Of a stretch of 64,000 nt of DNA, positions 2 to 55,822 are shown one piece after another; position 1 is the first letter of the stretch, and each line of letters begins with the position of its first letter. A program made the position numbers and the translations under genes. Source of the DNA: Eubacteriales bacterium (GTDB lineage: Bacteria > Bacillota > Clostridia > Oscillospirales > CAG-272); contig JBGVRO010000010.1 in the NCBI GenBank assembly GCA_045128515.1, positions 4,489-68,488 on the forward strand. Reading direction: 5' to 3'. Under the pieces are notes generated by a model. It had not been told where the DNA came from and did not search any database. It saw nothing but the letters and a program-made list of their open reading frames with translations.

Positions 2-2947
2 GCAGCAGTAAGCGGTGATACTATCACTCTTGTTAAGGACATTGAGGCTTCCAAGTACATCGATATTAAGACCGCTAATAACGGCGAGATCGGACGTACA
101 CTTGTTCTTGACCTTAACGGTCATACAATTTCTCCCGCAGAGGGATATAACTATAACACAGGCTATCCTCTCGTATTCGTTGGTATTAACCAGACTCTTA
201 CTATTAAGGGCGAGGGTACTATCACCGCAGACAAGAAGGTAACCGTTGGTGTATACGGCACTCTTACTGTTGAAAGCGGTAATATTGTAAACAACGGCAC
301 AACCGATGATGATGCCGCACTTGGAATTTACTACTGGAACAACGACCTTCCCAGCTACGAGGGTACCGTAGGCGGTACTGCTTACGTTAAGGGCGGTAAG
401 TTCGTAGGTACAGTTTACTGTGACGATCCCGACGCAGACGGCAAGGCTACTCTTGAGATCTCGGGCGGTAGCTTCACTCACGACGTATCCGACTTCTGCG
501 TAGAAGGATTTGACTGTACAATGAATCCCGACGGCAGCTTCGGTGTAGCAGATCACGTTCATATCTATAATCCTGTTGTAACTGCTCCCACATGTACTGC
601 GGATGGTTATACAACACATACATGTGCTTGCGGTAATACTTACATCGATAGTAAGGTTGCAGCTCTCGGTCACGACATCGTTGTTGACAAGGCATTTGAT
701 GCAACATGTACCGAGATTGGTCTCACTCGAGGTGAGCACTGTACAAGATGCGACCACAAGGTTGCGCAGGTGGTAATTCCTGCTAAGGGTCATACCGCAG
801 GTGCGGCTGCTACCTGTACCACAGCACAGATCTGTACTGTATGTAAGGTAGAGCTTGTCAAGGCTCTCGGTCACTCTCACAACGCAGTTGTAACTGCTCC
901 CACCTGTACCGAGGAAGGTTACACCACATACACCTGTCACTGTGGTGATAGCTACACTGCAAACAAGGTTGCAGCGCTCGGTCACTCCTATGACGCGGTT
1001 GTAACTGCTCCTACCTTTGATGCAAAGGGTTACACAACTCACACCTGTGCAAACTGTGGCGACAGCTACGTTGACAGCTACGTTGACGCACTTGTTGCAG
1101 TAGCACAGATCGGTGAAGTTAAGTACGAGACCGTTACCGAGGCTATCAATGCTTCTGTTGACGGTGACGTGATCAAGCTTCTTGCAGGTACTGTTGCAGA
1201 GGAGATCAAGGTTTCCGATTACATTAACAGATTCGGTGGCAAGAGCATCACTATCGAGGGTGCTGAAAATTACGGCACAACTCTTACCGGCGGTCTCTAC
1301 ATCGGTTATGATGACACTGTATCATACAACGGCTCTGTAACCGTTAAGGGTATTGCATTTGAGGGCAAGGGTCTTGCTCTTGTTGACCTTGAATGCGCAA
1401 GTGTTCTTGACTGTAAGTTCACTAATGTTGAGGGTGCTGCTATTCGCGTAATTTCCGACGGTAACACTCGTCTTGCTACTATTACGGGTAACGTTGTTAA
1501 CGGCGCAGAGATTGGTATCAGAGTTCGTAATGCTCTCGAGCTTCTTATCGATAACAACGAGATCAGCAATACTCAGCATAACTCCATTACTGTAGAACAG
1601 GGTTCTGCATATATCGCAAATACACAGCCTCTTACCATCACTAATAACACCCTTGCAAACTGGGGTCTTAGCGGTGAGGGTAGAGCAATCAGAGTTTCTC
1701 TCGGTAAGGTTTCTCTTGTGAGAAGCGGCAGCGCTTCTGTTGGCAAGAACGTTACTATTGCTAACAACACTCTTATTAACGAGAACGCTCCCGAGGAATT
1801 CATTAAGGTAACAGACGTTGATGCATCTATGGACGTTACTGTTAATGCTAACATTATGGTTGGTAACGTTCCCACAGGAAATGAGTATATCCTTCTTGAG
1901 GGTAACGGTGCTTCTGACGTTGATATTTCTAACAACCCCAGCGTTGCTGAAAACGAGCCTCATATCTTTGAGGGCTACTGGTGGATCGGTAATACCAACA
2001 CCGGTGTTAAGGCAACAGGCACAGGCATTGAGAGTGTAGAGCTTAATGCAGACGGCGAGCTTATCATCAACTTTACCGATGGCACAAACGTTAACCTTGG
2101 CAGCCTTAAGGGTGAACAGGGCGAACCCGGTGCTTCCGGTACTCCCGGTGCTCCCGGTGCAGACGGCATAGGTATCAAAAACGTTGAGATCGATGCTGAA
2201 GGTAATCTTGTAATCACATACACCGACGGTAAGTCTGTATCTCTTGGCAACATCAAGGGTGACAAGGGTGATCAGGGCGAAACCGGCGCAACCGGCAACG
2301 GCATTGCAAAGGTTGAGCTTAACGCAGACGGTGAGCTTATCATTAAATTCACCGATGGCACCTCCGTAAACCTTGGTAACATCAAGGGCGCAAATGGTGA
2401 AGATGGTGAAGATGGCAAGCCCGGTGCAGACGGTAAGGACGGTATTGGCGTTGAAAAGATCGAGATCGTGAACAACAATCTTGTGATCACTTATACCGAC
2501 GGCACTTCTGTAAACCTTGGCAACATCAAGGGCGCAGACGGTGAAAATGGCAAGGATGGCAACGGCATTGCAAAGATCGAGCGCGACGAAAACGACAACC
2601 TTATCATCACCTACACCAATGGTGAAACCGTAAATCTCGGCAACATCAAGGGTGATAAGGGCGACAAGGGCGAGGCTGGAAACGGCATTGCAAAGGTTGA
2701 GCTTAACGAAAAGGGCGAGCTTGTAATCACCTACACCAACGGTGAGAGCGTAAACCTTGGTAACCTTAAGGGTGACAAGGGTGACAAGGGTGACAAGGGC
2801 GATCAGGGTGAACCCGGTAAGGACGGACAGGATGCTAATATGGAGATCATCGTTATTTGCATCGGAATCGCAGCCCTTTGTATCATGACCACTATGGTTG
2901 CACTTTTGACTCGTAGAGGTCGTGGCGCTTGGTGGATCCTTAGATAA
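2..2947 (+). CDS. Large cell-surface protein, 5'-truncated by the window edge. It contains Cys-rich repeats, a beta-helix region, six beta-module/collagen-like repeats and a C-terminal TM anchor.
   Basis: The frame is open from nt 2, upstream of the ORF-track Met at 521. Repeats VVTAPTCT..GYTT.TC.CGDSY occur four times. A beta-helix-like NxxI/V-rich region follows. GIAKVELNADGELII.FTDGT.VNLGNIKG modules alternate with G-X-Y runs. The C-terminus is hydrophobic (IIVICIGIAALCIMTTMVALL) followed by RRGRG. Confidence 0.8.
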   Translation, partial: AAVSGDTITLVKDIEASKYIDIKTANNGEIGRTLVLDLNGHTISPAEGYNYNTGYPLVFVGINQTLTIKGEGTITADKKVTVGVYGTLTVESGNIVNNGTTDDDAALGIYYWNNDLPSYEGTVGGTAYVKGGKFVGTVYCDDPDADGKATLEISGGSFTHDVSDFCVEGFDCTMNPDGSFGVADHVHIYNPVVTAPTCTADGYTTHTCACGNTYIDSKVAALGHDIVVDKAFDATCTEIGLTRGEHCTRCDHKVAQVVIPAKGHTAGAAATCTTAQICTVCKVELVKALGHSHNAVVTAPTCTEEGYTTYTCHCGDSYTANKVAALGHSYDAVVTAPTFDAKGYTTHTCANCGDSYVDSYVDALVAVAQIGEVKYETVTEAINASVDGDVIKLLAGTVAEEIKVSDYINRFGGKSITIEGAENYGTTLTGGLYIGYDDTVSYNGSVTVKGIAFEGKGLALVDLECASVLDCKFTNVEGAAIRVISDGNTRLATITGNVVNGAEIGIRVRNALELLIDNNEISNTQHNSITVEQGSAYIANTQPLTITNNTLANWGLSGEGRAIRVSLGKVSLVRSGSASVGKNVTIANNTLINENAPEEFIKVTDVDASMDVTVNANIMVGNVPTGNEYILLEGNGASDVDISNNPSVAENEPHIFEGYWWIGNTNTGVKATGTGIESVELNADGELIINFTDGTNVNLGSLKGEQGEPGASGTPGAPGADGIGIKNVEIDAEGNLVITYTDGKSVSLGNIKGDKGDQGETGATGNGIAKVELNADGELIIKFTDGTSVNLGNIKGANGEDGEDGKPGADGKDGIGVEKIEIVNNNLVITYTDGTSVNLGNIKGADGENGKDGNGIAKIERDENDNLIITYTNGETVNLGNIKGDKGDKGEAGNGIAKVELNEKGELVITYTNGESVNLGNLKGDKGDKGDKGDQGEPGKDGQDANMEIIVICIGIAALCIMTTMVALLTRRGRGAWWILR
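2024..2832 (+). repeat. Six tandem coding repeats. Each is a ~29-aa beta-module followed by 4-7 collagen-like G-X-Y triplets.
   Basis: Read from the translation: GEQGEPGASGTPGAPGADG, GDKGDQGETGATGN, GANGEDGEDGKPGADGKDG, GADGENGKDGN, GDKGDKGEAGN, GDKGDKGDKGDQGEPGKDGQD. Each is preceded by the I..VE.....L.I.(F/Y)T(D/N)G..V.LG.(I/L)KG module. Confidence 0.85.
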
Positions 2948-2988
2948 TCACACCGTTATATAATCTAATAAACGGCTGATAAAGCTTT

Positions 2989-3025
2989 GGCGGACTCGGG
3001 TAATTCCGAGTCCGCCTTTAATTTT
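2989..3025. terminator. Intrinsic terminator between convergent genes
   Basis: ggcggactcgg-gtaatt-ccgagtccgcc (11-bp stem) followed by tttaatttt. Confidence 0.6.
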
Positions 3026-3043
3026 CTACCATTATATTATATA

Positions 3044-4276
3044 TTATTTATAGGAATATATCTCGCTTAGTCTGTTGTACTTTGCAACTCGCTCGCCACG
3101 ACAGGGCGCGCCTGCCTTAATAAATTCTGCACCTACGGCAACGGCAATATCGCTGATAGCGGAATCGTTAGTCTCGCCAGAACGGTGCGAAACGATAACC
3201 CTGTATCCCGACTCCTGTGCAACCGAAATGACCTTAAGCGTCTCACTTAAGCTACCTATCTGATTGGGCTTAATAAGAATAGCGTTTGCGGCAGACAGAC
3301 GTATTCCTTCTCTTAGCCTTCTTTCGTTGGTTACAAAGAAATCGTCGCCTACCAGCATTATTTTGTCCCCGAGAGCCTCTGTCAGCTTGACCCAACCGTC
3401 ATAATCGTCCTCGCTGACTCCGTCCTCAATGGATATTATGGGGTATTTCTCGCACAGATCCTTGTATCGCTCTATCAGTATATCAGCCGTAACCGTCTCA
3501 CCGCGCTTTGGCATACGGTATTTTCCGTCTACAAACCACTCGCTTGACGCTACGTCAAGGGCAATTCCAACCTTGTCAAGACTGTATCCCGTGTCGGTTA
3601 TTGCCTGACATAAAAGCTTTATCGCCTCCTCGTCCGACTCAAGGTCGGGTGTAAATCCACCCTCGTCACCTACACCTGTCGATAATCCCTTATCCTTTAA
3701 CAGTCTGCCGAGAGTGTGGTATATCTCGCTTCCTGCCTGAATCGCCTTCTCAAGCGTCAGACCGTGTGGCACGACCATAAACTCCTGTATATCCACGTTG
3801 TTTGTGGCGTGAGCACCGCCGTTAAGCAGATTAAACATAGGTGTGGGGGCTTTGCCCTTTTCCTTTTTACCGAGGTATTGGTAAAGCTCATGTCCCAATT
3901 CCTTTGCCGCAGCCCTTGCAACGGCAAGTGATACCGCAAGAATAGAGTTCGCTCCCAAATTCGACTTGTTTACACTTTGGTCAAGGGCGATCATTTTTCT
4001 GTCTATAGCTTCCTGATCGTTTGCCATAGCTCCAAGCAGGGCAGGGCGAATAATATCGTTTATATTTTTTACTGCGCCGAGCACTCCCTTGCCACCGTAT
4101 CTTGACCTGTCACCGTCACGCAGCTCGTGTGCCTCGTGTATTCCCGTAGATGCGCCCGAGGGTACAGAGGCTGTACCGACCGCTCCCGATTCGAGAATAA
4201 CGCACGCCTCTACCGTAGGATTTGATCGTGAATCAAGAATTTCGCGAGCAGAAATGTTTTTTATTCTATTTGTCAT
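3044..4276 (-). CDS. eno: Enolase (phosphopyruvate hydratase), short and divergent form (410 aa)
   Basis: N-terminus I..I.AREILDSRSNPTVE, SVPSGASTG.HEA.ELRDGD, and SHRSGETNDS near the C-terminus. Confidence 0.92.
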   Translation of the reverse strand: MTNRIKNISAREILDSRSNPTVEACVILESGAVGTASVPSGASTGIHEAHELRDGDRSRYGGKGVLGAVKNINDIIRPALLGAMANDQEAIDRKMIALDQSVNKSNLGANSILAVSLAVARAAAKELGHELYQYLGKKEKGKAPTPMFNLLNGGAHATNNVDIQEFMVVPHGLTLEKAIQAGSEIYHTLGRLLKDKGLSTGVGDEGGFTPDLESDEEAIKLLCQAITDTGYSLDKVGIALDVASSEWFVDGKYRMPKRGETVTADILIERYKDLCEKYPIISIEDGVSEDDYDGWVKLTEALGDKIMLVGDDFFVTNERRLREGIRLSAANAILIKPNQIGSLSETLKVISVAQESGYRVIVSHRSGETNDSAISDIAVAVGAEFIKAGAPCRGERVAKYNRLSEIYSYK

Positions 4277-7228: not shown

Positions 7229-7340
7229 CTATTAGGTAACAGTGGGATGCGGATGACACACCGCTTCGGATAATATCCTCCTTCGTCCGAGTGACAACTC
7301 CCCGTTCACTCAGCACTAAACGCGCGCCGTCCTACTCTGT
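7229..7340 (-). promoter_or_regulatory. THF (tetrahydrofolate) riboswitch
   Basis: The minus-strand RNA reads ACAGAGUAGGACGGCGCGCGUUUAGUGCUGAGUGAACGGGGAGUUGUCACUCGGACGAAGG...CGGUGUGUCAUCCGCAUCCCACUGU. It carries the THF-class blocks AGAGUAG, GCGCGUU.AGUG, GUGAA.GGG, GUCAC, ACGAAG and CAUCCGC, and sits in front of folT. Confidence 0.8.
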
Positions 7341-7353
7341 CATGTATGATAGC

Positions 7354-15138: not shown

Positions 15139-15702
15139 TTACTTTTTCTTTACAGGCAACCAGATCTCGCCGTGCTCCATTGAGAGGTATACCTCGAGAT
15201 TGCAGTTAGCCGAAAGCTCGTATTCCTTAGAGTTCGGCAGCCATTCGCTCCATATCCATGTGTTAACTGTTTGCAATGCCTCGGGGCATTCGCCACTCCA
15301 AGGGAAAACTGCCCATGTTGCCGCATCAATAGTTTTTGTAACACAGCCGTCGGGAATATCCTTCCAAGGAAGGTACATATCGGCAATAAGATATTCAAAA
15401 CTTTCGCCGTCACCGTCAAGGCATACGCCAAACATACCTTCAATAATTTTGCCTCTGCCGTTTTCAAAGTGCTCGTCCCAGAAATTGGGAATCTCGGTAT
15501 AGGCAGTCTCGCCTGCAAATCGTTTGCCAAAGCCAACGACGGTAAATGCCGCCTTTTCAACAATTCTGTAATCCATAGTCTTTTCCTTACTTGATGTTTT
15601 ATTGATTTTTATAGGTGCAAATGTGCGAATATCCATTCCTCCCATTCTGTAGGCAGAGGGGGACGCACCGTGGAATTTGGTAAATGCCCTTGATTCGCTC
15701 AT
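15139..15702 (-). CDS. GyrI-like (AraC effector-binding) domain protein that keeps only the last helix of an AraC HTH
   Basis: The start was set at the ATG at 15702 behind gaggaggag. The N-terminus (F)TKFHGASPSAYR matches the end of AraC-type HTH domains. It is followed by MDYRIVEKAAFTVVGF...IPNFWDEHF, a GyrI-like fold signature. Confidence 0.68.
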   Translation of the reverse strand: MSESRAFTKFHGASPSAYRMGGMDIRTFAPIKINKTSSKEKTMDYRIVEKAAFTVVGFGKRFAGETAYTEIPNFWDEHFENGRGKIIEGMFGVCLDGDGESFEYLIADMYLPWKDIPDGCVTKTIDAATWAVFPWSGECPEALQTVNTWIWSEWLPNSKEYELSANCNLEVYLSMEHGEIWLPVKKK

Positions 15703-15815: not shown

Positions 15816-15850
15816 AATAATAAAGAAAATCCACCCAAATAGGTGGATTT
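15816..15850 (-). terminator. Intrinsic terminator of the enoate-reductase/AcnX operon
   Basis: On the minus strand: aaatccacc-tatttg-ggtggattt followed by tctttatt. Confidence 0.5.
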
Positions 15851-15857
15851 TCTGGTA

Positions 15858-15976
15858 TATGAATTGTCCTTCGGACATGAATTGAACCGTTGGTTCATGA
15901 ATTGCCTACGGCATGAATTGTGCGTTGCACATTAATTGACGGCAAAGCCGTCATGAATTGCACCTAGGGTGCATTA
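15858..15976 (-). repeat. Hairpin array A: six perfect variable hairpins joined by the constant linker CA-TGAAT-TG
   Basis: Plus strand: tatgaattg|tccttcgga|catgaattg|aaccgttggtt|catgaattg|cctacgg|catgaattg|tgcgttgca|cattaattg|acggcaaagccgt|catgaattg|cacctagggtg|cattatt. The array abuts the stop codon at 15977. Confidence 0.9.
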
Positions 15977-16420
15977 TTATTCTACAACAACTGTGCCATC
16001 TTCCAGAACGGTGATGGTCATGCCGTTCTGAACGTACTCAAGGAACTCGTCACCAAGGTTGTCGATAACGGGCATCTTGATGCCGTCAAGCCAAACGGAC
16101 GCGAGAATAGAGCCTGCTGCAGCAAGGCTGTCGATAGACTTTGAGAAGAGCATACATGCGGGCTGACGCTCCATAGCGCATGCACAGTAGAGTACAAGAC
16201 CGCCTGTGGTAGAGCCGATTGTCTGGGGGAGACAGAGAGCAGAGCCTGCAAGAGGAAGCTTGTAGATCTCGGGGTTAGACTGGTCGGAGCACTTTACCTG
16301 CTTGTCACCGAACTGAAGACCCATCTGCATAGATGCAAGGGTGTTAAATCCGCCGTGAGTAACTACTGCGGTAGCCTTTGCGGTACCGGGAGTGATAATT
16401 CTACCTTTAAACTGACGCAT
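15977..16420 (-). CDS. Aconitase X swivel-domain subunit (DUF126)
   Basis: A 147-aa protein with GRIITPG.A.A...THGGFN and CLPQTIGSTTG motifs, immediately downstream of the DUF521 subunit. Confidence 0.78.
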   Translation of the reverse strand: MRQFKGRIITPGTAKATAVVTHGGFNTLASMQMGLQFGDKQVKCSDQSNPEIYKLPLAGSALCLPQTIGSTTGGLVLYCACAMERQPACMLFSKSIDSLAAAGSILASVWLDGIKMPVIDNLGDEFLEYVQNGMTITVLEDGTVVVE

Positions 16421-16422
16421 TA

Positions 16423-17697
16423 TTACTTACCTCCTTTTGTAATTGCAACGAGAATCTCGTCGTCGGAAAGATACTTTGCAGAGGTGTATGTACGAAGCTT
16501 GTTAGAGGATGTAATAACAGGCATAGTCTTGCAAAGAGGGTTATTCATATACATAAGAGGGCAGATGTAGGATGTGATAACACCGCACTTCTTAAGTCTC
16601 TCAGCATACTCGGTCTTGTTGAATACCTCAAGCACGCCGGGAGCTGCTGTAAATACGGTAGGAATAACAACCTTGGAGTTACCTGCTGCCTTAAGGCCTG
16701 CCTCAACCTTGTCTGTCCAGCTCTTAAGCTGCTCAAGGCTCATATGGGGACAACCCATGAAGCAAAGCTTGGGGGTAGCATCGGGATTCTTCCAGATAAC
16801 AGGGTAGGAGTCCTTTACTCTCTGAAGCTCTGCATCGTCGATAACGTAAACCTGCGCGCCCTCAGCAATAAGAGACTCGCCGTGAAGCTTTGCCTCGGGG
16901 GTGAGGTCGTGAATGTGGTAAAGACCAACTGCGCCGTTGGATGCAGTCGCAGCGCCAAAGTCCTTAAGATATGTGCAAGCAGCATCGTCAAGCTCGTTGC
17001 CAAGATACTGGTTAAGGCCGTAAACGTAGGGAACGTCCTCCATAACCTTCATACCGATAGCACTACCGAGAAGCTGTGCATCAGGCTTCTTTGTGGTCTC
17101 AACCTTGATGATCCAGGTAGCCTTTCTACCCTCATCGGTAAGAAGACCGAAGTTAGGAACGTAGCCTGCAATAGAACCCATGATATCCATAATACCCGAG
17201 TTTCTGTTACATCTTGCACCGAGAACAGAGTTCGCGTATACTACGGCAGAGGACTCGGACCAAGAGAGAATGTCACCCATCTTGGGCTTGTTACCAACCT
17301 CGTCCATGTAGCAGGTACAGGTGAAGGCATTCTTATCCATAAGACCAAGCTTGTCCAGCTGAACCTCATAGGTTGCCTGCTTGGTGTACATGAATTTGTC
17401 GAATACGAAATTCTGAAGGAAGTTTGCAGGAACGTTTTTGTCTACGGGACGGGGGTCCATGGAGAACTTCTGTCCGCTTGTAACGCCTGCGTCAATGAGT
17501 CTCTGCATAAGGTCATAAACAGGAGCCATAACCTTAAGACCAAAGCTTGTTACCAGGTGGTTATATTCGCTTGTTACAGCTACAAGACTGTCGGCGCCAA
17601 ATGTCTCGCCGTACATAACGAGGGTCTTCATAACCTTCGCCATGGTTTCGCCATGCTTGCCGTCAAGCATTTCCTGCTGGTGAGCAGTAAGTTGCAT
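16423..17697 (-). CDS. Aconitase X catalytic subunit (DUF521)
   Basis: A 424-aa protein beginning L...Q..MLDG..GE, with Cys-containing segments (CNRNSG, GCPHMS) typical of the AcnX large subunit. It is paired with the DUF126 subunit. Confidence 0.8.
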   Translation of the reverse strand: MQLTAHQQEMLDGKHGETMAKVMKTLVMYGETFGADSLVAVTSEYNHLVTSFGLKVMAPVYDLMQRLIDAGVTSGQKFSMDPRPVDKNVPANFLQNFVFDKFMYTKQATYEVQLDKLGLMDKNAFTCTCYMDEVGNKPKMGDILSWSESSAVVYANSVLGARCNRNSGIMDIMGSIAGYVPNFGLLTDEGRKATWIIKVETTKKPDAQLLGSAIGMKVMEDVPYVYGLNQYLGNELDDAACTYLKDFGAATASNGAVGLYHIHDLTPEAKLHGESLIAEGAQVYVIDDAELQRVKDSYPVIWKNPDATPKLCFMGCPHMSLEQLKSWTDKVEAGLKAAGNSKVVIPTVFTAAPGVLEVFNKTEYAERLKKCGVITSYICPLMYMNNPLCKTMPVITSSNKLRTYTSAKYLSDDEILVAITKGGK

Positions 17698-17737: not shown

Positions 17738-17851
17738 GTTTGCATAAGCAAACATTTCATCCGCCTTGGCGGATTTCATCCTGTATTACAGGATTTCATT
17801 CGGGCATTTGCCCGAATTTCATTGTATGAAGATCGTTTAGATCTTCATACA
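17738..17851 (-). repeat. Hairpin array C: five perfect hairpins joined by AT-TTC-AT linkers
   Basis: gtttgc-ataa-gcaaac | atccgcc-tt-ggcggat | atcctgt-att-acaggat | attcgggc-attt-gcccgaat | tgtatgaagatc-gttta-gatcttcataca. The last stem is built from the final four codons and the stop of the enoate-reductase gene. Confidence 0.88.
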
Positions 17852-23923: not shown

Positions 23924-24631
23924 ATGAGAATAGATAAGCTTTTGTCCGAGCTTGGCATCGCCTCGCGTAAGGAGGCGGCTAAGGTTGCGAAATCGGGTGG
24001 AATCATCATAGACGGCATAGCCGTAAGAGATGTGTCAAAGCATATCGACCCCGAAAAATCCAAGGTGATCTATCTCGGTCGGGAGATAGTGTATCAAAAG
24101 TACACCTACGTTATGCTGAACAAGCCTACGGGATACGTCAGCGCAACAGATGACAAGAGTTTGCCCTACGTTACCGAGCTTTTGCCCGAGGAACTGAGAC
24201 GACGTGAGCTTTTCCCGGTGGGACGTCTTGACCGCGATACGGTTGGTCTTATGATACTTACCAACAACGGTGTTCTCGCTCATTCGCTTTTATCCCCCAA
24301 GCACCACGTAACAAAAGAGTATTATTTCACTGCTGCCGAGCCTGTAAGGGAAGGCGCAGAGGAGAATTTTAAGGATGGTGTGACCCTTGCCGATGGGTAT
24401 GAATGTAAGCCTGCTGAGCTATATCTCTCCGAGGATAGACGAGAGGGAAGAATTGTGCTTACCGAGGGTAAATATCACCAGATAAAGCGTATGATAGCAG
24501 CGCAGGATAACCGTGTTACAAGCCTTGAGCGAATTTCCTTTGGTGGAATTTTGCTTGATCGAACACTTGCTCGCGGTGAGTGGCGCTATCTTACTAAAGA
24601 AGAAATTATTATCCTTGAGATGCAAGGATAA
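23924..24631 (+). CDS. rsuA: Pseudouridine synthase, RsuA/RluB family, with an S4 domain
   Basis: S4 domain MRIDKLLSELGIASRKEA and the catalytic motif GRLDRDTVGL. The start was set at the ATG at 23924 behind ggaggt. Confidence 0.85.
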   Translation: MRIDKLLSELGIASRKEAAKVAKSGGIIIDGIAVRDVSKHIDPEKSKVIYLGREIVYQKYTYVMLNKPTGYVSATDDKSLPYVTELLPEELRRRELFPVGRLDRDTVGLMILTNNGVLAHSLLSPKHHVTKEYYFTAAEPVREGAEENFKDGVTLADGYECKPAELYLSEDRREGRIVLTEGKYHQIKRMIAAQDNRVTSLERISFGGILLDRTLARGEWRYLTKEEIIILEMQG

Positions 24632-24634
24632 TAA

Positions 24635-24823
24635 TGTTTCGCAAAGCGAAACAATTCATGCACGAAGTGCAATTCATGGCGATAGCCAATTCATGCCATA
24701 GGCAATTCATAAAAGAATGAATTGAAGCCACAGGCTTCATGAATTGAGATCTTTGATCTCATGAATTGATGCTACACATCATGAATTGAAACCATGTTTC
24801 ATGATTTGAAGGCACAGCCTTCA
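24635..24823 (+). repeat. Hairpin array B: ten perfect hairpins. The same linker as array A is present in both orientations, flipping at a central 8-bp palindrome.
   Basis: Four units use CAATTCATG linkers. A central caattcat-aaaaga-atgaattg follows, then five units use CATGAATTG linkers. The array fills the gap from 4 nt after the rsuA stop to the tex RBS. Confidence 0.9.
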
Positions 24824-43990: not shown

Positions 43991-45202
43991 ATGGAAATAA
44001 AAAACAATAAAGTACTTAACATCATACTCAAGGTTGTAACGGGCTTACTGATAGCATTCACCGTATTCATTATGATCTTCACCGTCGTATCGGTTACCAC
44101 CCTTGACAAAAATGACCGTAACCTTTTCGGTTTCAGATTCTACATAGTACAGACCGACTCAATGAGTCCCTCTGAAAACAATGCTCATCTCGACGTTCAT
44201 TTCAGCGCAGGTGACATCGTTGTTATCAAGAACGTTAAGAATCCTACTAAGCTTGAGGCAGGAGATATCATTGCTTTTATCTCGACTAACAAGGTAAGCT
44301 ACGGCGAGACCGTAACGCATATGATCCGTAAGCCTACGGTTGATAAGGATGGCAGAACCTGTTACGTTACTTACGGTACTAACACTAATACTGATGATGA
44401 AGCGTGCGTGTATCCCGAGTACGTAATCGGCGAGTACGCAGGCAAGCTTCCCGGTGTCGGACACTTCTTCGCATTCGTTAAGTCCACCCCCGGTTACATC
44501 TGCTGTATTTTGATTCCTTTCCTGCTTCTCATACTTTATAACGGCGCTGACGTAATCCGCCTGTTCAGAAAGTACAAGAAGGAGCAGACCGCTATACTCG
44601 ATGCCGAAAAGGCTGAGATCGCCGCAGAGAGAGCGCGTAATGAGGAAATGCTTCGCGAGCTTCTTGCTCTTAAGAATCAGCTCGCAGGTAATGCTCCTGC
44701 CGAGGCACAGCCCACAGCGACTGCCGAAGCACCTGTCACAGAGACAGCGCCTGTCGTAGAAGCGGCTCCCACGGTTGAGGAGAAGCCCATGACAGAGGAG
44801 GAGATCGCTGCTCAGAAGAAGGCTGAAGCTGCTCGCAAGCGTAAGGAAACCCTCGCTCGCAAGAAGGCAGAGGCAGAGGCGGCAAAGCTCGCTGAGGAGG
44901 AGGCTGCACGTAAGGCTGCCGAGGAAGAGGCACAGCGTCTTGCTGATGAGGCTGCCGCACAGAAGAAGGCTGAGGCTGCTCGTAAGCGCAAGGAAACTCT
45001 TGCTCGTAAGAAGGCAGAAGCTGAGGAAGAGGCGGCACGTGTTGCTGCTGAAGAAGAGGCACAGCGCCTTGCTGATGAAGCTGCCGCACAGAAGAAGGCT
45101 GAAGCTGCTCGCAAGCGTAAGGAAACCCTCGCTCGCAAGAAGGCAGAGGCAGAGGCGGCAAAGGCTGCTGAAAACAATCCCGACGACAAGTCGGACACTT
45201 AA
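43991..45202 (+). CDS. sipW: Archaeal/ER-type (S26B, SipW-like) signal peptidase I with a ~210-aa Ala/Glu/Lys-rich C-terminal tail
   Basis: N-terminal TM, the Ser box VQTDSMSP, GDIVVI and GDIIAF boxes, the His box VTHMI and a second TM (YICCILIPFLLLILY). Three tail repeats of AAQKKAEAARKRKETLARKKAEAE follow. Confidence 0.8.
   Translation: MEIKNNKVLNIILKVVTGLLIAFTVFIMIFTVVSVTTLDKNDRNLFGFRFYIVQTDSMSPSENNAHLDVHFSAGDIVVIKNVKNPTKLEAGDIIAFISTNKVSYGETVTHMIRKPTVDKDGRTCYVTYGTNTNTDDEACVYPEYVIGEYAGKLPGVGHFFAFVKSTPGYICCILIPFLLLILYNGADVIRLFRKYKKEQTAILDAEKAEIAAERARNEEMLRELLALKNQLAGNAPAEAQPTATAEAPVTETAPVVEAAPTVEEKPMTEEEIAAQKKAEAARKRKETLARKKAEAEAAKLAEEEAARKAAEEEAQRLADEAAAQKKAEAARKRKETLARKKAEAEEEAARVAAEEEAQRLADEAAAQKKAEAARKRKETLARKKAEAEAAKAAENNPDDKSDT
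44807..45165 (+). repeat. Three tandem coding repeats (periods 144 and 129 bp) in the SipW tail
   Basis: Copies begin at 44807, 44951 and 45080. The first and third are nearly identical at the DNA level (gaagaaggctgaagctgctcgcaagcgtaaggaaaccctcgctcgcaagaaggcagaggcagaggcggcaaag). Confidence 0.85.
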
Positions 45203-55249: not shown

Positions 55250-55822
55250 ATGTACACTTTTATTATCATATTCTTGATTATAGCCACTATTTTCGCTATC
55301 GGAACGCTTATTTACGTTGTTGCCGATACTATCCTCGATCTCTTCAGAAAGAAGCCTGAGGAAGAAGAAAAGGTGGTTGAACAGCCCCCTGTTGTTGTGG
55401 TTGTTCCTGAACCCGAGCCTGAACCTGAGCCTGAGCCTGAGCCCGAACCCGAGCCCGAGCCTATACCCGTACCCGTAGTTATTCCTGTTCTTGAGGTAGA
55501 GCAGATCGACGCGGTTGAGGCAGATGCTATGATTCCTGACGAGGTTGCAATGGGATCTGTCCGCTACGAAAGCGGTGCAGGACACGGTAAGAAGGGTGAA
55601 ATTAACATCGGTGTTATTGACCAGCACTTTGAAGATGGCGAGGTCATCACCATTCAGGCACTTAAAAATAAAAATCTTATCAGCAGAAAGGATTGCCGCA
55701 TAAAGGTACTTGCCCACGGCATCCTTAGAAAGAGCTTCACCGTTAAGGCTGAAGCATTCTCGGTCGAGGCAATTAAGATGATCGAGCTTATGGGCGGTAC
55801 AGTAATAATTTTAGTTGATTGA
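55250..55822 (+). CDS. Membrane-anchored protein: N-terminal TM, (EP)n linker and a domain homologous to the C-terminal half of ribosomal protein uL15
   Basis: TM FIIIFLIIATIFAIGTLIYVVA followed by RKK, then (PE)x10. The segment KKGEINIGVIDQHFEDGEVITIQALKNKNLISRKDCRIKVLAHGILRKSFTVKAEAFSVEAIKMIELMGGTVIIL follows. It aligns with B. subtilis RplO ..[73 protein letters not shown]. Confidence 0.75.
   Translation: MYTFIIIFLIIATIFAIGTLIYVVADTILDLFRKKPEEEEKVVEQPPVVVVVPEPEPEPEPEPEPEPEPEPIPVPVVIPVLEVEQIDAVEADAMIPDEVAMGSVRYESGAGHGKKGEINIGVIDQHFEDGEVITIQALKNKNLISRKDCRIKVLAHGILRKSFTVKAEAFSVEAIKMIELMGGTVIILVD
55406..55476 (+). repeat. Hexanucleotide (GAR-CCY) coding microsatellite encoding (EP)n
   Basis: cctgaacccgagcctgaacctgagcctgagcctgagcccgaacccgagcccgagcct... 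Confidence 0.85.

Follow-up and report, generated by a model that had tools for sequence, protein, structure and literature searches.

A hairpin-linker array in the AcnX 3' untranslated region as an orphan copy of a dispersed repeat family around Gut-1 and PF05635

The window analysed here is a stretch of 64,000 nucleotides (64 kb) from an Eubacteriales bacterium genome (assembly GCA_045128515.1, contig JBGVRO010000010.1), and its central element is array A, a run of short hairpins joined by a constant linker, which lies in the 3' untranslated region (UTR) of the AcnX operon between the stop codon of the AcnX small-subunit gene and the operon terminator. Array A is a one-armed orphan of a dispersed, strain-variable hairpin-linker family, the ATGAATT branch of the superfamily to which the Rfam motif Gut-1 (RF01706) also belongs. 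Complete two-armed arrays of this superfamily are physically coupled to genes of the PF05635 family, and their linkers are specific to the protein lineage.

Array A and the other arrays of the window

The six perfect hairpins and the constant 9-mer with two degenerate copies, which the original prediction had read from the letters alone, were confirmed on the + strand, together with the placement of the array between the AcnX small-subunit stop and the operon terminator (Table 1). The variable segments are 7-13 nt long, and with the flanking TG..CA each of them forms a perfect stem of 4-7 bp closed by a 3-nt loop. Apart from the two degenerate copies the linker is exactly CATGAATTG, and the degenerate CATTAATTG is a strain-specific substitution, as the sister strains L005 and L007 (L numbers denote the fetched loci) read CATGAATTG at this place. 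The array does adjoin a stop codon, as was claimed, but it begins 3 nt past the stop at 15977-15979 rather than at it, and a second in-frame TAA at 15974-15976 belongs to the partial linker TAATG of the array. The terminator is also present, its position being corrected from about 15816-15850 to 15824-15853; since it is kept in strains without array A, it is a context of the array and lies outside it.

The observation is real, and chance falls far short of explaining it. The window contains 10 exact copies of CATGAATTG versus 0.92 expected, none of 100 shuffles reaches 10, and all 10 copies fall within arrays A and C, while the chance probability of the 21 variable stem pairs of array A is about 4^-21. 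Folding of the mRNA-sense RNA gives exactly six local hairpins and the terminator (-60.3 kcal/mol, z = -6.8). In the hairpin-cluster and k-mer clustering scans arrays A, B, and C were the only constant-linker runs in the 64 kb.

Table 1. Coordinates of the arrays and adjoining features, counted from the first letter of the window
Feature	Position	Strand	Description
Array A	15858..15976	- (mRNA sense, AATTCAT strand)	six perfect hairpins, unrelated stems; linker CATGAATTG on +
Array A, sequence, first half		+	TATGAATTG-tccttcgga-CATGAATTG-aaccgttggtt-CATGAATTG-cctacgg-CATGAATTG-
Array A, sequence, second half		+	-tgcgttgca-CATTAATTG-acggcaaagccgt-CATGAATTG-cacctagggtg-CAT
Array A, sequence, first half		-	TAATG-(H1 cacc CTA ggtg)-CAATTCATG-(H2 acggc TTT gccgt)-CAATTAATG-(H3 tgc AAC gca)-CAATTCATG-
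Array A, sequence, second half		-	-(H4 cc GTA gg)-CAATTCATG-(H5 aacc AAC ggtt)-CAATTCATG-(H6 tcc GAA gga)-CAATTCATA
Array A hairpins	15865-15877, 15883-15897, 15903-15913, 15919-15931, 15937-15953, 15959-15973	+ coordinates	including TG/CA
Array A linkers	starts 15858, 15876, 15896, 15912, 15930, 15952	+ coordinates	9 nt each
AcnX small subunit (PF01989)	15977..16420	-	stop codon 15977-15979, 3 nt from first hairpin of array A
Hairpin of AcnX operon	15824..15853	-	intrinsic-terminator-like; 13 pairs and T-rich tail TTATTATTT
Array B	17738..17851	-	five hairpins; 4x ATGAAAT on - (ATTTCAT on +); linker + coordinates 17754, 17773, 17793, 17816
Array C	24635..24823	+	two-armed, 'convergent'; 4x CAATTCATG, then 5x CATGAATTG-type linkers
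Array C, first-arm hairpins	24635-24653, 24659-24671, 24677-24688, 24694-24704	+	
Array C, second-arm hairpins	24723-24739, 24745-24761, 24767-24781, 24787-24801, 24807-24823	+	
rsuA-end palindrome	24605..24635	+	perfect 13-bp; spans last rsuA codons (EEIIILEMQG and stop)

The same architecture, which had been reported at 17738-17851 and 24635-24823 with 21 hairpins in total, was confirmed at both places, and no stem is common to any of the 21. Array B adjoins the gene of a 689-aa OYE/pyridine-nucleotide oxidoreductase on the downstream side, and the AcnX large-subunit gene (16423-17697, - strand) comes after the array. In the last hairpin of array B (17823-17851) one arm is formed by the closing 12 nt of the preceding coding sequence, and the loop contains its stop codon (17837-17839). 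Array C sits between rsuA and tex and ends with CATTAA just ahead of the ribosome-binding site (RBS) of tex (24849); its centre (24703-24724) is an inverted repeat of two linkers, and the fold reaches -81 kcal/mol (z = -7.5), with a long-range linker-linker "ladder" predicted between the arms.

The palindrome at the end of rsuA is paired only in 10 of 13 positions in L142 and L143 (around 1380-1412), where the array is the same except for one base and the ancestral protein ending EEIDILEKQG is kept. The three arm substitutions of the window strain are all directed toward complementarity, at the cost of D-to-I and K-to-M changes in the conserved C-terminus, and this looks like templated quasi-palindrome correction or strong selection for a hairpin.

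Downstream of the terminator behind array A the - strand carries a gene for a GyrI-like/Cass2 ("integron-associated effector binding") protein (15139-15645), beyond which the strains differ, having a 281-aa open reading frame (ORF), a 231-aa ORF, or directly a flotillin gene. Elsewhere in the window a tetrahydrofolate (THF) riboswitch (RF01831, 75.8 bits) was found at 7238-7341 (- strand), and Tandem Repeats Finder reported repeats with periods of 120, 129, and 6-24 nt at 2510-2811, 44891-45155, and 55406-55475, which are unrelated to the hairpin arrays.

Relation to Gut-1, anatomy and dispersal of the family

The Gut-1 motif was derived from 43 human-gut metagenome sequences without a host or function being given, and in the Weinberg et al. 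2010 study (PMC2864571) it was graded as certainly RNA and not cis-regulatory. Its consensus consists of three variable-stem hairpins between four UGAAAU linkers, which is the architecture of array B, and a portion of this array (17749-17824, - strand) matches the Gut-1 covariance model with 56 bits, the gathering threshold being 50 bits. Array A reaches 23.7 bits on the + strand (E 0.46), under this threshold, and for array C no match at E <= 10 was obtained. Nevertheless, array A contains six consecutive hairpins with variable complementary stems, Gut-1 being defined by at least three, and its linker AUGAAUU differs by one base from AUGAAAU, the linker of the Gut-1 motif being RUGAAAU or GUGAUAU. 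The Gut-1 seed alignment itself mixes GUGAAAU and GUGAUAU linkers and includes two-armed examples, e.g., four GUGAUAU followed by four AUAUCAC. As the linker is one base off and the seed is already mixed, array A is a related variant outside the Gut-1 model: arrays A and C represent a sister variant of Gut-1 with the linker ATGAATT, and array B is a bona fide Gut-1. The suggestion that a new class of extragenic element had been found did not survive, since array B exceeds the Gut-1 threshold and linker variants are already present in the seed.

The other part of this suggestion, that the element is repetitive and extragenic, was borne out by the genome scan proposed with it. With the pattern TGAATTG-N7-15-CATGAATTG-N7-15-CATGAAT, one genome being taken per species, at least 120 stretches of the ATGAATT variant were detected, versus a chance expectation of about 1 by the estimate made in this analysis. 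Three odd matches proved to be ordinary tandem repeats. Among the matches listed nearly every host is a metagenome-assembled genome of gut or rumen Clostridia, the groups being Oscillospiraceae, Acutalibacteraceae, Christensenellales, and "Eubacteriales"; IMG/VR viral contigs yielded about 11 true arrays. Judged by this distribution, the window comes from a gut Clostridia lineage.

The family anatomy was determined in a sample of 167 arrays with 522 inter-linker segments, and it indicates that the linker is the conserved part, that only the structure of the hairpins is constrained, and that the element is intrinsically polar. Perfect palindromes make up 244 of 352 distinct segments, 67 more have one mismatch, segments opening with G and closing with C account for 468/533, and there are few G.T pairs (26 of about 1,435). 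The loops on the AATTCAT strand (GAA 58, GCA 50, AAA 23, GTA 21, GTCA 20, GTAA 17, and GCAA 17) are nearly always closed by C-G, and the complementary loops are essentially absent from this strand. The ratio of G..A to T..C loops is 51:1 when the flanking genes run with the array and 55:2 when they run against it; being equal for both gene directions, the polarity is a feature of the element rather than an effect of host transcription. A fixed orientation relative to transcription was rejected by the gene contexts counted along the AATTCAT strand (--36, ++31, +-24, -+24).

Four linkers are present in 117/164 arrays, matching the architecture of the Gut-1 model, and about one-third of the arms belong to two-armed arrays, 25 pairs being "divergent" and 5 "convergent", including array C. 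Arrays abut stop codons in either orientation: the AATTCAT strand begins with TAATG, the TAA of which is often the stop codon, and in arrays facing the other way the stop is often supplied by the TGA of the first linker. Growth by recent tandem duplication was rejected, as close hairpin pairs make up 2.3% within an array versus 2.0% between arrays. The claim that stems are unrelated is valid within an array, while across the family a recurrent repertoire appears, where GGCGAAGCC was met 15 times and GCGAAGC itself was also found; different species also share whole array types, in which the stems are conserved and the loops vary. Terminators accompany 8-13% of one-armed arrays versus 5% background, which is not a convincing enrichment.

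Comparison of orthologous sites between strains, also proposed with the original prediction, revealed gain, loss, and replacement of whole arrays and of units. Strains with 100% identical AcnX small subunit differ at both sites A and B. At site A the six-hairpin array (window, L005, and L007) is exchanged in other strains for some 60 nt of unrelated sequence, for (AATTCGA)n, or for next to nothing, and site B contains either the ATGAAAT array or another array with GTGATAT linkers and unrelated stems, which has 5 units in L003 and L008 versus 3 in L005 due to a clean two-unit indel between linkers. The array of site C is present in the window and L140-L143, absent in L130-L139, and replaced by (AATGCAG)x4 in L144-L147 and by a DUF559 gene with another repeat family in L148-L150. 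The strain comparison revealed neither target-site duplications nor a clean empty site, and near-identical arrays adjoin unrelated genes.

Several observations were made on the alternative contents of such sites. At sites C and A, alleles without arrays carry short tandem 7-13-mers that resemble hairpin-free linkers, namely (AATGCAG)x4 (L144-L147, about 1412-1455), TGTATTTCAAA(A)G x2 (L130-L139, about 1909-1960), and (AATTCGA)n (L008, about 3445-3490), each unit with a tiny palindrome (TGCA, TTCGAA); these could be proto-arrays or collapsed arrays. In L148-L150 (1409-2066) the gene inserted in the rsuA-tex spacer encodes a 126-aa DUF559 (PF04480) protein and is flanked by CCTCCCC..GGGGAGG hairpins and three 47-nt repeats (gacccttccgtcaggct..gcctgccacctcccctaaaagtggaggc), a repeat family that also adjoins arrays in L023, L033, L076, and L101. 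In the last locus (600-4080) four unrelated small genes, one DUF3885 and three without Pfam match, are split by mosaic intergenic modules composed of ACTTCAC-, ATGAAAT-, and AATTCAT-linker arrays and a TGGTATAAT promoter, which gives a cassette-array-like layout.

PF05635 genes and their upstream arrays

Among 140 ORFs adjoining arrays the Pfam scan found PF05635 (23S_rRNA_IVP, "four helix bundle protein") 10 times, other families not more than 3 times, and no transposase, HUH nuclease, or cas family. The genes enclosed by inverted arrays in L055 and L019 were also considered as a possible partner and set aside, because they appear from the translations to be ordinary metabolic genes. The phmmer search detected 12 PF05635 genes in 990 kb of fetched loci, and all 12 have an upstream array, 11 of the ATGAATT type and one (L054) of the ATGATAT type. 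In most of them the AATTCAT arm and the RBS run directly into the ORF; in L129 and L120 a consensus promoter (TTGACA-17-TATAAT) is followed by a long hairpin and then by the whole array.

Since these first loci had been picked through arrays, a second survey was started from the protein; it covered the copies of P0195 and P0217 described below and 80 loci of subfamily 2 (L054 type) fetched independently from metagenomes. In subfamily 2 the two-armed array has the linkers (T)ATATCATC x3 and then TGATGATAT(A) x3 and is situated after a tRNA gene with a terminator and before a good promoter. Considering only PF05635 genes with at least 260 nt of upstream sequence, an array was found within 340 nt upstream in 84/90. 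The linker is ATGAATT in 27/29 of subfamily 1 and (T)GATGATAT(A) in 52/56 of subfamily 2, and five further copies of the gene have four further linker types: ATGGAAT (L383, ATGGMAT/ATTCCAT), ATGTAAT (L384, ATGTAAT/ATTACAT), GTGAAAT (L386, GTGAAAT/ATTTCAC), and ATGATAT in two copies (L387/L388, ATGATAT/TATATCA). The linker type tracks the protein lineage without cross combinations, and the two arms are always complementary to each other. Formal Gut-1 matches also lie directly upstream of PF05635 genes, in L386 (72.9 and 69.4 bits) and L387 (60.5 bits). In the RNAalifold analysis of 10 distinct subfamily-1 composites the hairpins were supported, with compensatory changes in 7/42 pairs and an invariant 10-bp helix between the arms; the linker-linker ladder predicted for array C was not clearly predicted for the PF05635 leader.

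The gene probably travels together with its array. An identical 117-aa protein (P0195) was met in at least six contexts, including those after purH, EF-Tu, an ABC permease, and a Cu-amine-oxidase-N1-domain protein and next to MatE, and the P0217 protein was met in another one. All 10 listed P0195/P0217 copies share the same two-armed upstream array of about 215 nt and a conserved downstream tail of about 45 nt, so that gene, array, and tail are best described as a putative mobile cassette of roughly 650 bp. L071 has the same array and downstream flank and no gene, L098 has the array with a related flank, and both resemble gene-free sites. Subfamily-2 cassettes were observed directly after different tRNA genes (CCA encoded) with terminators in L307, L314, L321, L334, L384, and L387; taken with the location of subfamily 1 behind EF-Tu, purH, and other genes, this suggests that highly expressed loci are preferred.

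The closest solved homologue of the linked protein is the uncharacterised protein PDB 2RLD (E = 1e-26), with five chains in the entry. PF05635 proteins are very numerous in gut bacteria, a single search giving more than 7,900 close matches, and the family is reported to resemble Avd, the accessory protein of diversity-generating retroelements (DGR) (PMC10053308; PDB 4DWL cited there). In the literature searched nothing on Gut-1 was found after Weinberg et al. 2010, its repeat behaviour, strand polarity, and PF05635 linkage were not found described, and no link of PF05635 to hairpin repeats was found; the polarity, typical size, and PF05635 linkage of the arrays are new in this analysis.

Possible function and comparison with known systems

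According to the explanation favoured here, which is tentative and may well prove wrong, the hairpins present the single-stranded linkers as a putative multivalent binding platform for a cognate four-helix-bundle oligomer. The hairpins would be interchangeable spacers with local folding, between which the 5-7-nt linker alone stays single-stranded at regular intervals, with four linkers in a typical arm, and the oligomeric protein would bind the repeated linkers on the folded single strand. For transcribed arrays, such as the one in the AcnX 3' UTR, the protein would bind RNA; for arrays upstream of a promoter the bound strand may be DNA. An array ahead of the protein's own gene may provide autoregulation, and orphan arrays at stop codons, such as array A, may be either extra binding sites or tolerated selfish copies which would also structure the mRNA end. 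Of the candidate roles put forward in the original prediction, namely an exonuclease barrier, an RNA processing site, and a protein-binding array, the last is backed indirectly by the PF05635 linkage.

Several facts weigh against this binding platform. The covariation of linker and protein could reflect co-inheritance of a linked unit with concerted evolution, or the need for the arms to stay complementary. No PF05635 gene is present in the 64-kb window, so array A is without a partner in cis, and the hairpins of orphan arrays are unrelated to those of gene-linked arrays. The subfamily-1 array lies in the leader downstream of the promoter and the subfamily-2 array upstream of the promoter, and with this opposite placement a single species, RNA or DNA, fits both only awkwardly. 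Four linkers per arm have no obvious match to a pentamer. Finally, the array-bearing loci were partly selected through arrays, which was controlled only in the direction from the PF05635 gene to the array.

An unlikely alternative is an RNA element without a dedicated protein similar to repetitive extragenic palindromes (REP) and bacterial interspersed mosaic elements (BIME), where GC-rich mini-hairpins would block 3'-to-5' exonucleases and insulate cistrons, AU-rich linkers would be an endonuclease entry (e.g., for RNase Y), and the PF05635 linkage would be incidental, the cassette merely carrying such a leader. The position at stop codons, between stop and terminator or between co-directional genes, the very stable folds of array A (z = -6.8) and array C (z = -7.5), the formation of hairpins in transcripts of either orientation, and the strain-level presence and absence, by which the arrays are dispensable, agree with this element; it leaves unexplained, however, the conservation of 7-9-nt linkers across bacterial families and their change in concert with the PF05635 lineage, the loop polarity independent of transcription direction, and the preferred count of four linkers, and it is opposed by subfamily-2 arrays, which sit between a terminator and a promoter. 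In another alternative the arrays would be selfish single-stranded DNA (ssDNA) repeats comparable to REPIN/RAYT or IS200/IS605-derived elements, spreading and turning over as DNA with secondary effects on mRNA; the c(GNA)g mini-hairpins would form on a single DNA strand, and a trans-acting enzyme would recognise or cleave the linker.

The c(GNA)g triloops and GNNA loops, including GNYA, are an exceptionally stable type of DNA mini-hairpin, e.g., d(GCGAAGC), and both occur in the array loop repertoire. Also consistent with ssDNA repeats are the intrinsic polarity independent of the flanking gene direction, the scarcity of G.T wobbles (the same 26 pairs), the fact that strains with identical neighbouring proteins may have an array, lack it, or have it replaced, the near-identical arrays beside unrelated genes, the rsuA-end quasi-palindrome perfected by three arm substitutions, and the location of subfamily-2 arrays outside the predicted transcript. 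Nevertheless, no transposase or HUH nuclease is enriched among the 140 neighbouring genes, the compared strains show neither a target-site duplication nor a clean empty site, hairpins of one array resemble each other no more than those of different arrays, so that no trace of copy-paste or tandem duplication is seen, and there is no orientation bias relative to gene direction, taken as a proxy for replication direction; on balance this DNA-level explanation is improbable while keeping real weight. An independent trans-acting small-RNA gene, as Gut-1 is typed in Rfam, is very improbable: the grading by Weinberg et al. 2010 (PMC2864571) as RNA and not cis-regulatory and the consensus promoter directly ahead of the two-armed array in L129 and L120 are in its favour, but in the same two loci the arrays run straight into the RBS and the PF05635 ORF, array A lies inside an operon 3' UTR without its own promoter, terminators are not enriched beside one-armed arrays, and the copy number differs between strains.

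The favoured linker-binding platform could be part of a broader and rather doubtful picture, where the arrays and stand-alone PF05635 (Avd-like) proteins would constitute an unrecognised two-component repeat system of gut Firmicutes, with reading of the lineage-specific 7-nt linker, a mobile cassette inserting after tRNA, EF-Tu, and other highly expressed genes, and orphan arrays as sites controlled or propagated by the protein. If true, such a partnership would resemble REP-RAYT but rest on a non-enzymatic oligomer, and it would provide a ligand and a role for both the Gut-1 motif and the "23S rRNA intervening-sequence protein" family. Gut-1 has been in Rfam since 2010 as a metagenome-only "sRNA" (small RNA) without host, context, or function, and PF05635 proteins are equally uncharacterised outside the DGR Avd, so their linkage through a lineage-specific linker turns two orphans into one testable hypothesis of protein-array recognition and recasts Gut-1 as a dispersed, strain-variable extragenic repeat. 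In practice the arrays mark hypervariable intergenic sites useful in strain typing; they may contribute to assembly breaks, since many PF05635 copies are on contigs shorter than 1.5 kb, and they represent a natural modular design with hairpin spacers displaying short single-stranded motifs.

The original view that array A is neither a clustered regularly interspaced short palindromic repeat (CRISPR) locus, nor a classical REP/BIME, nor a set of decaying terminators is supported by the defining features of these elements. CRISPR loci have repeats of 23-55 nt, non-palindromic spacers longer than 20 nt, and cas genes nearby, whereas here the repeat is 9 nt, the "spacers" are 7-13 nt and self-complementary, and no cas family occurs among the neighbours. 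Tandem or decaying intrinsic terminators were excluded, as five of the six array A hairpins precede TGAATTG or TTAATTG with no T run, and the terminator scan flags only hairpin 15959-15973, on the + (antisense) strand. A protein-coding repeat was likewise excluded by segment lengths of 9-15 nt, all common, without 3-periodicity. The attC sites of integrons resemble the arrays in the folded single-strand structure conserved over sequence and in the location between unrelated small genes (cf. L101), but an attC site is a single imperfect hairpin (57-141 nt) that carries R''/L''-L'/R' boxes and depends on an integrase, whereas the array consists of many 11-17-nt hairpins with a repeated linker, so this identity was rejected too.

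TRAP/HutP-type leaders carry repeated short single-stranded motifs bound by a ring-shaped oligomer and separated by unstructured 2-3-nt spacers. Several copies of a short motif with roughly regular spacing in a leader make them similar to the arrays as a functional analogy only, and they differ in having no hairpin pickets. Avd acts on structured nucleic acid. It is an oligomeric four-helix-bundle accessory factor, and the linked protein belongs to a family resembling it (PMC10053308); however, neither a reverse transcriptase nor a template or variable repeat was noticed near the arrays, and the array-linked genes stand alone as cassettes behind tRNA, EF-Tu, purH, and other genes.

Closer parallels are offered by the REP/BIME elements and the REPIN-RAYT system (REP doublets and REP-associated tyrosine transposases) of Proteobacteria, which are extragenic, usually transcribed, and located near gene 3' ends as singles or inverted doublets; REP have a conserved stem sequence, and their associated protein is a Y1/HUH transposase. 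The arrays are likewise extragenic, placed at gene ends singly or in inverted clusters, with many orphan copies, a cognate gene flanked by its own repeat type, and several families per genome. They differ from the classical palindrome of about 35 nt with a shared stem in having a conserved linker and free stems, with 362 distinct segments among 522, and no RAYT-type Y1 transposase occurs among the 140 neighbouring genes, where PF05635 is the enriched neighbour, its product being a small non-enzymatic four-helix bundle. Gut-1 is different from array A in the linker (CAUGAAUUG in the latter), the six hairpins, and the score of 23.7 bits, while it shares with the family the short consecutive hairpins, co-varying stems, conserved A/U-rich linker, and gut origin, the four linkers with three internal hairpins, the two-armed cases in its seed, and array B as a formal member.

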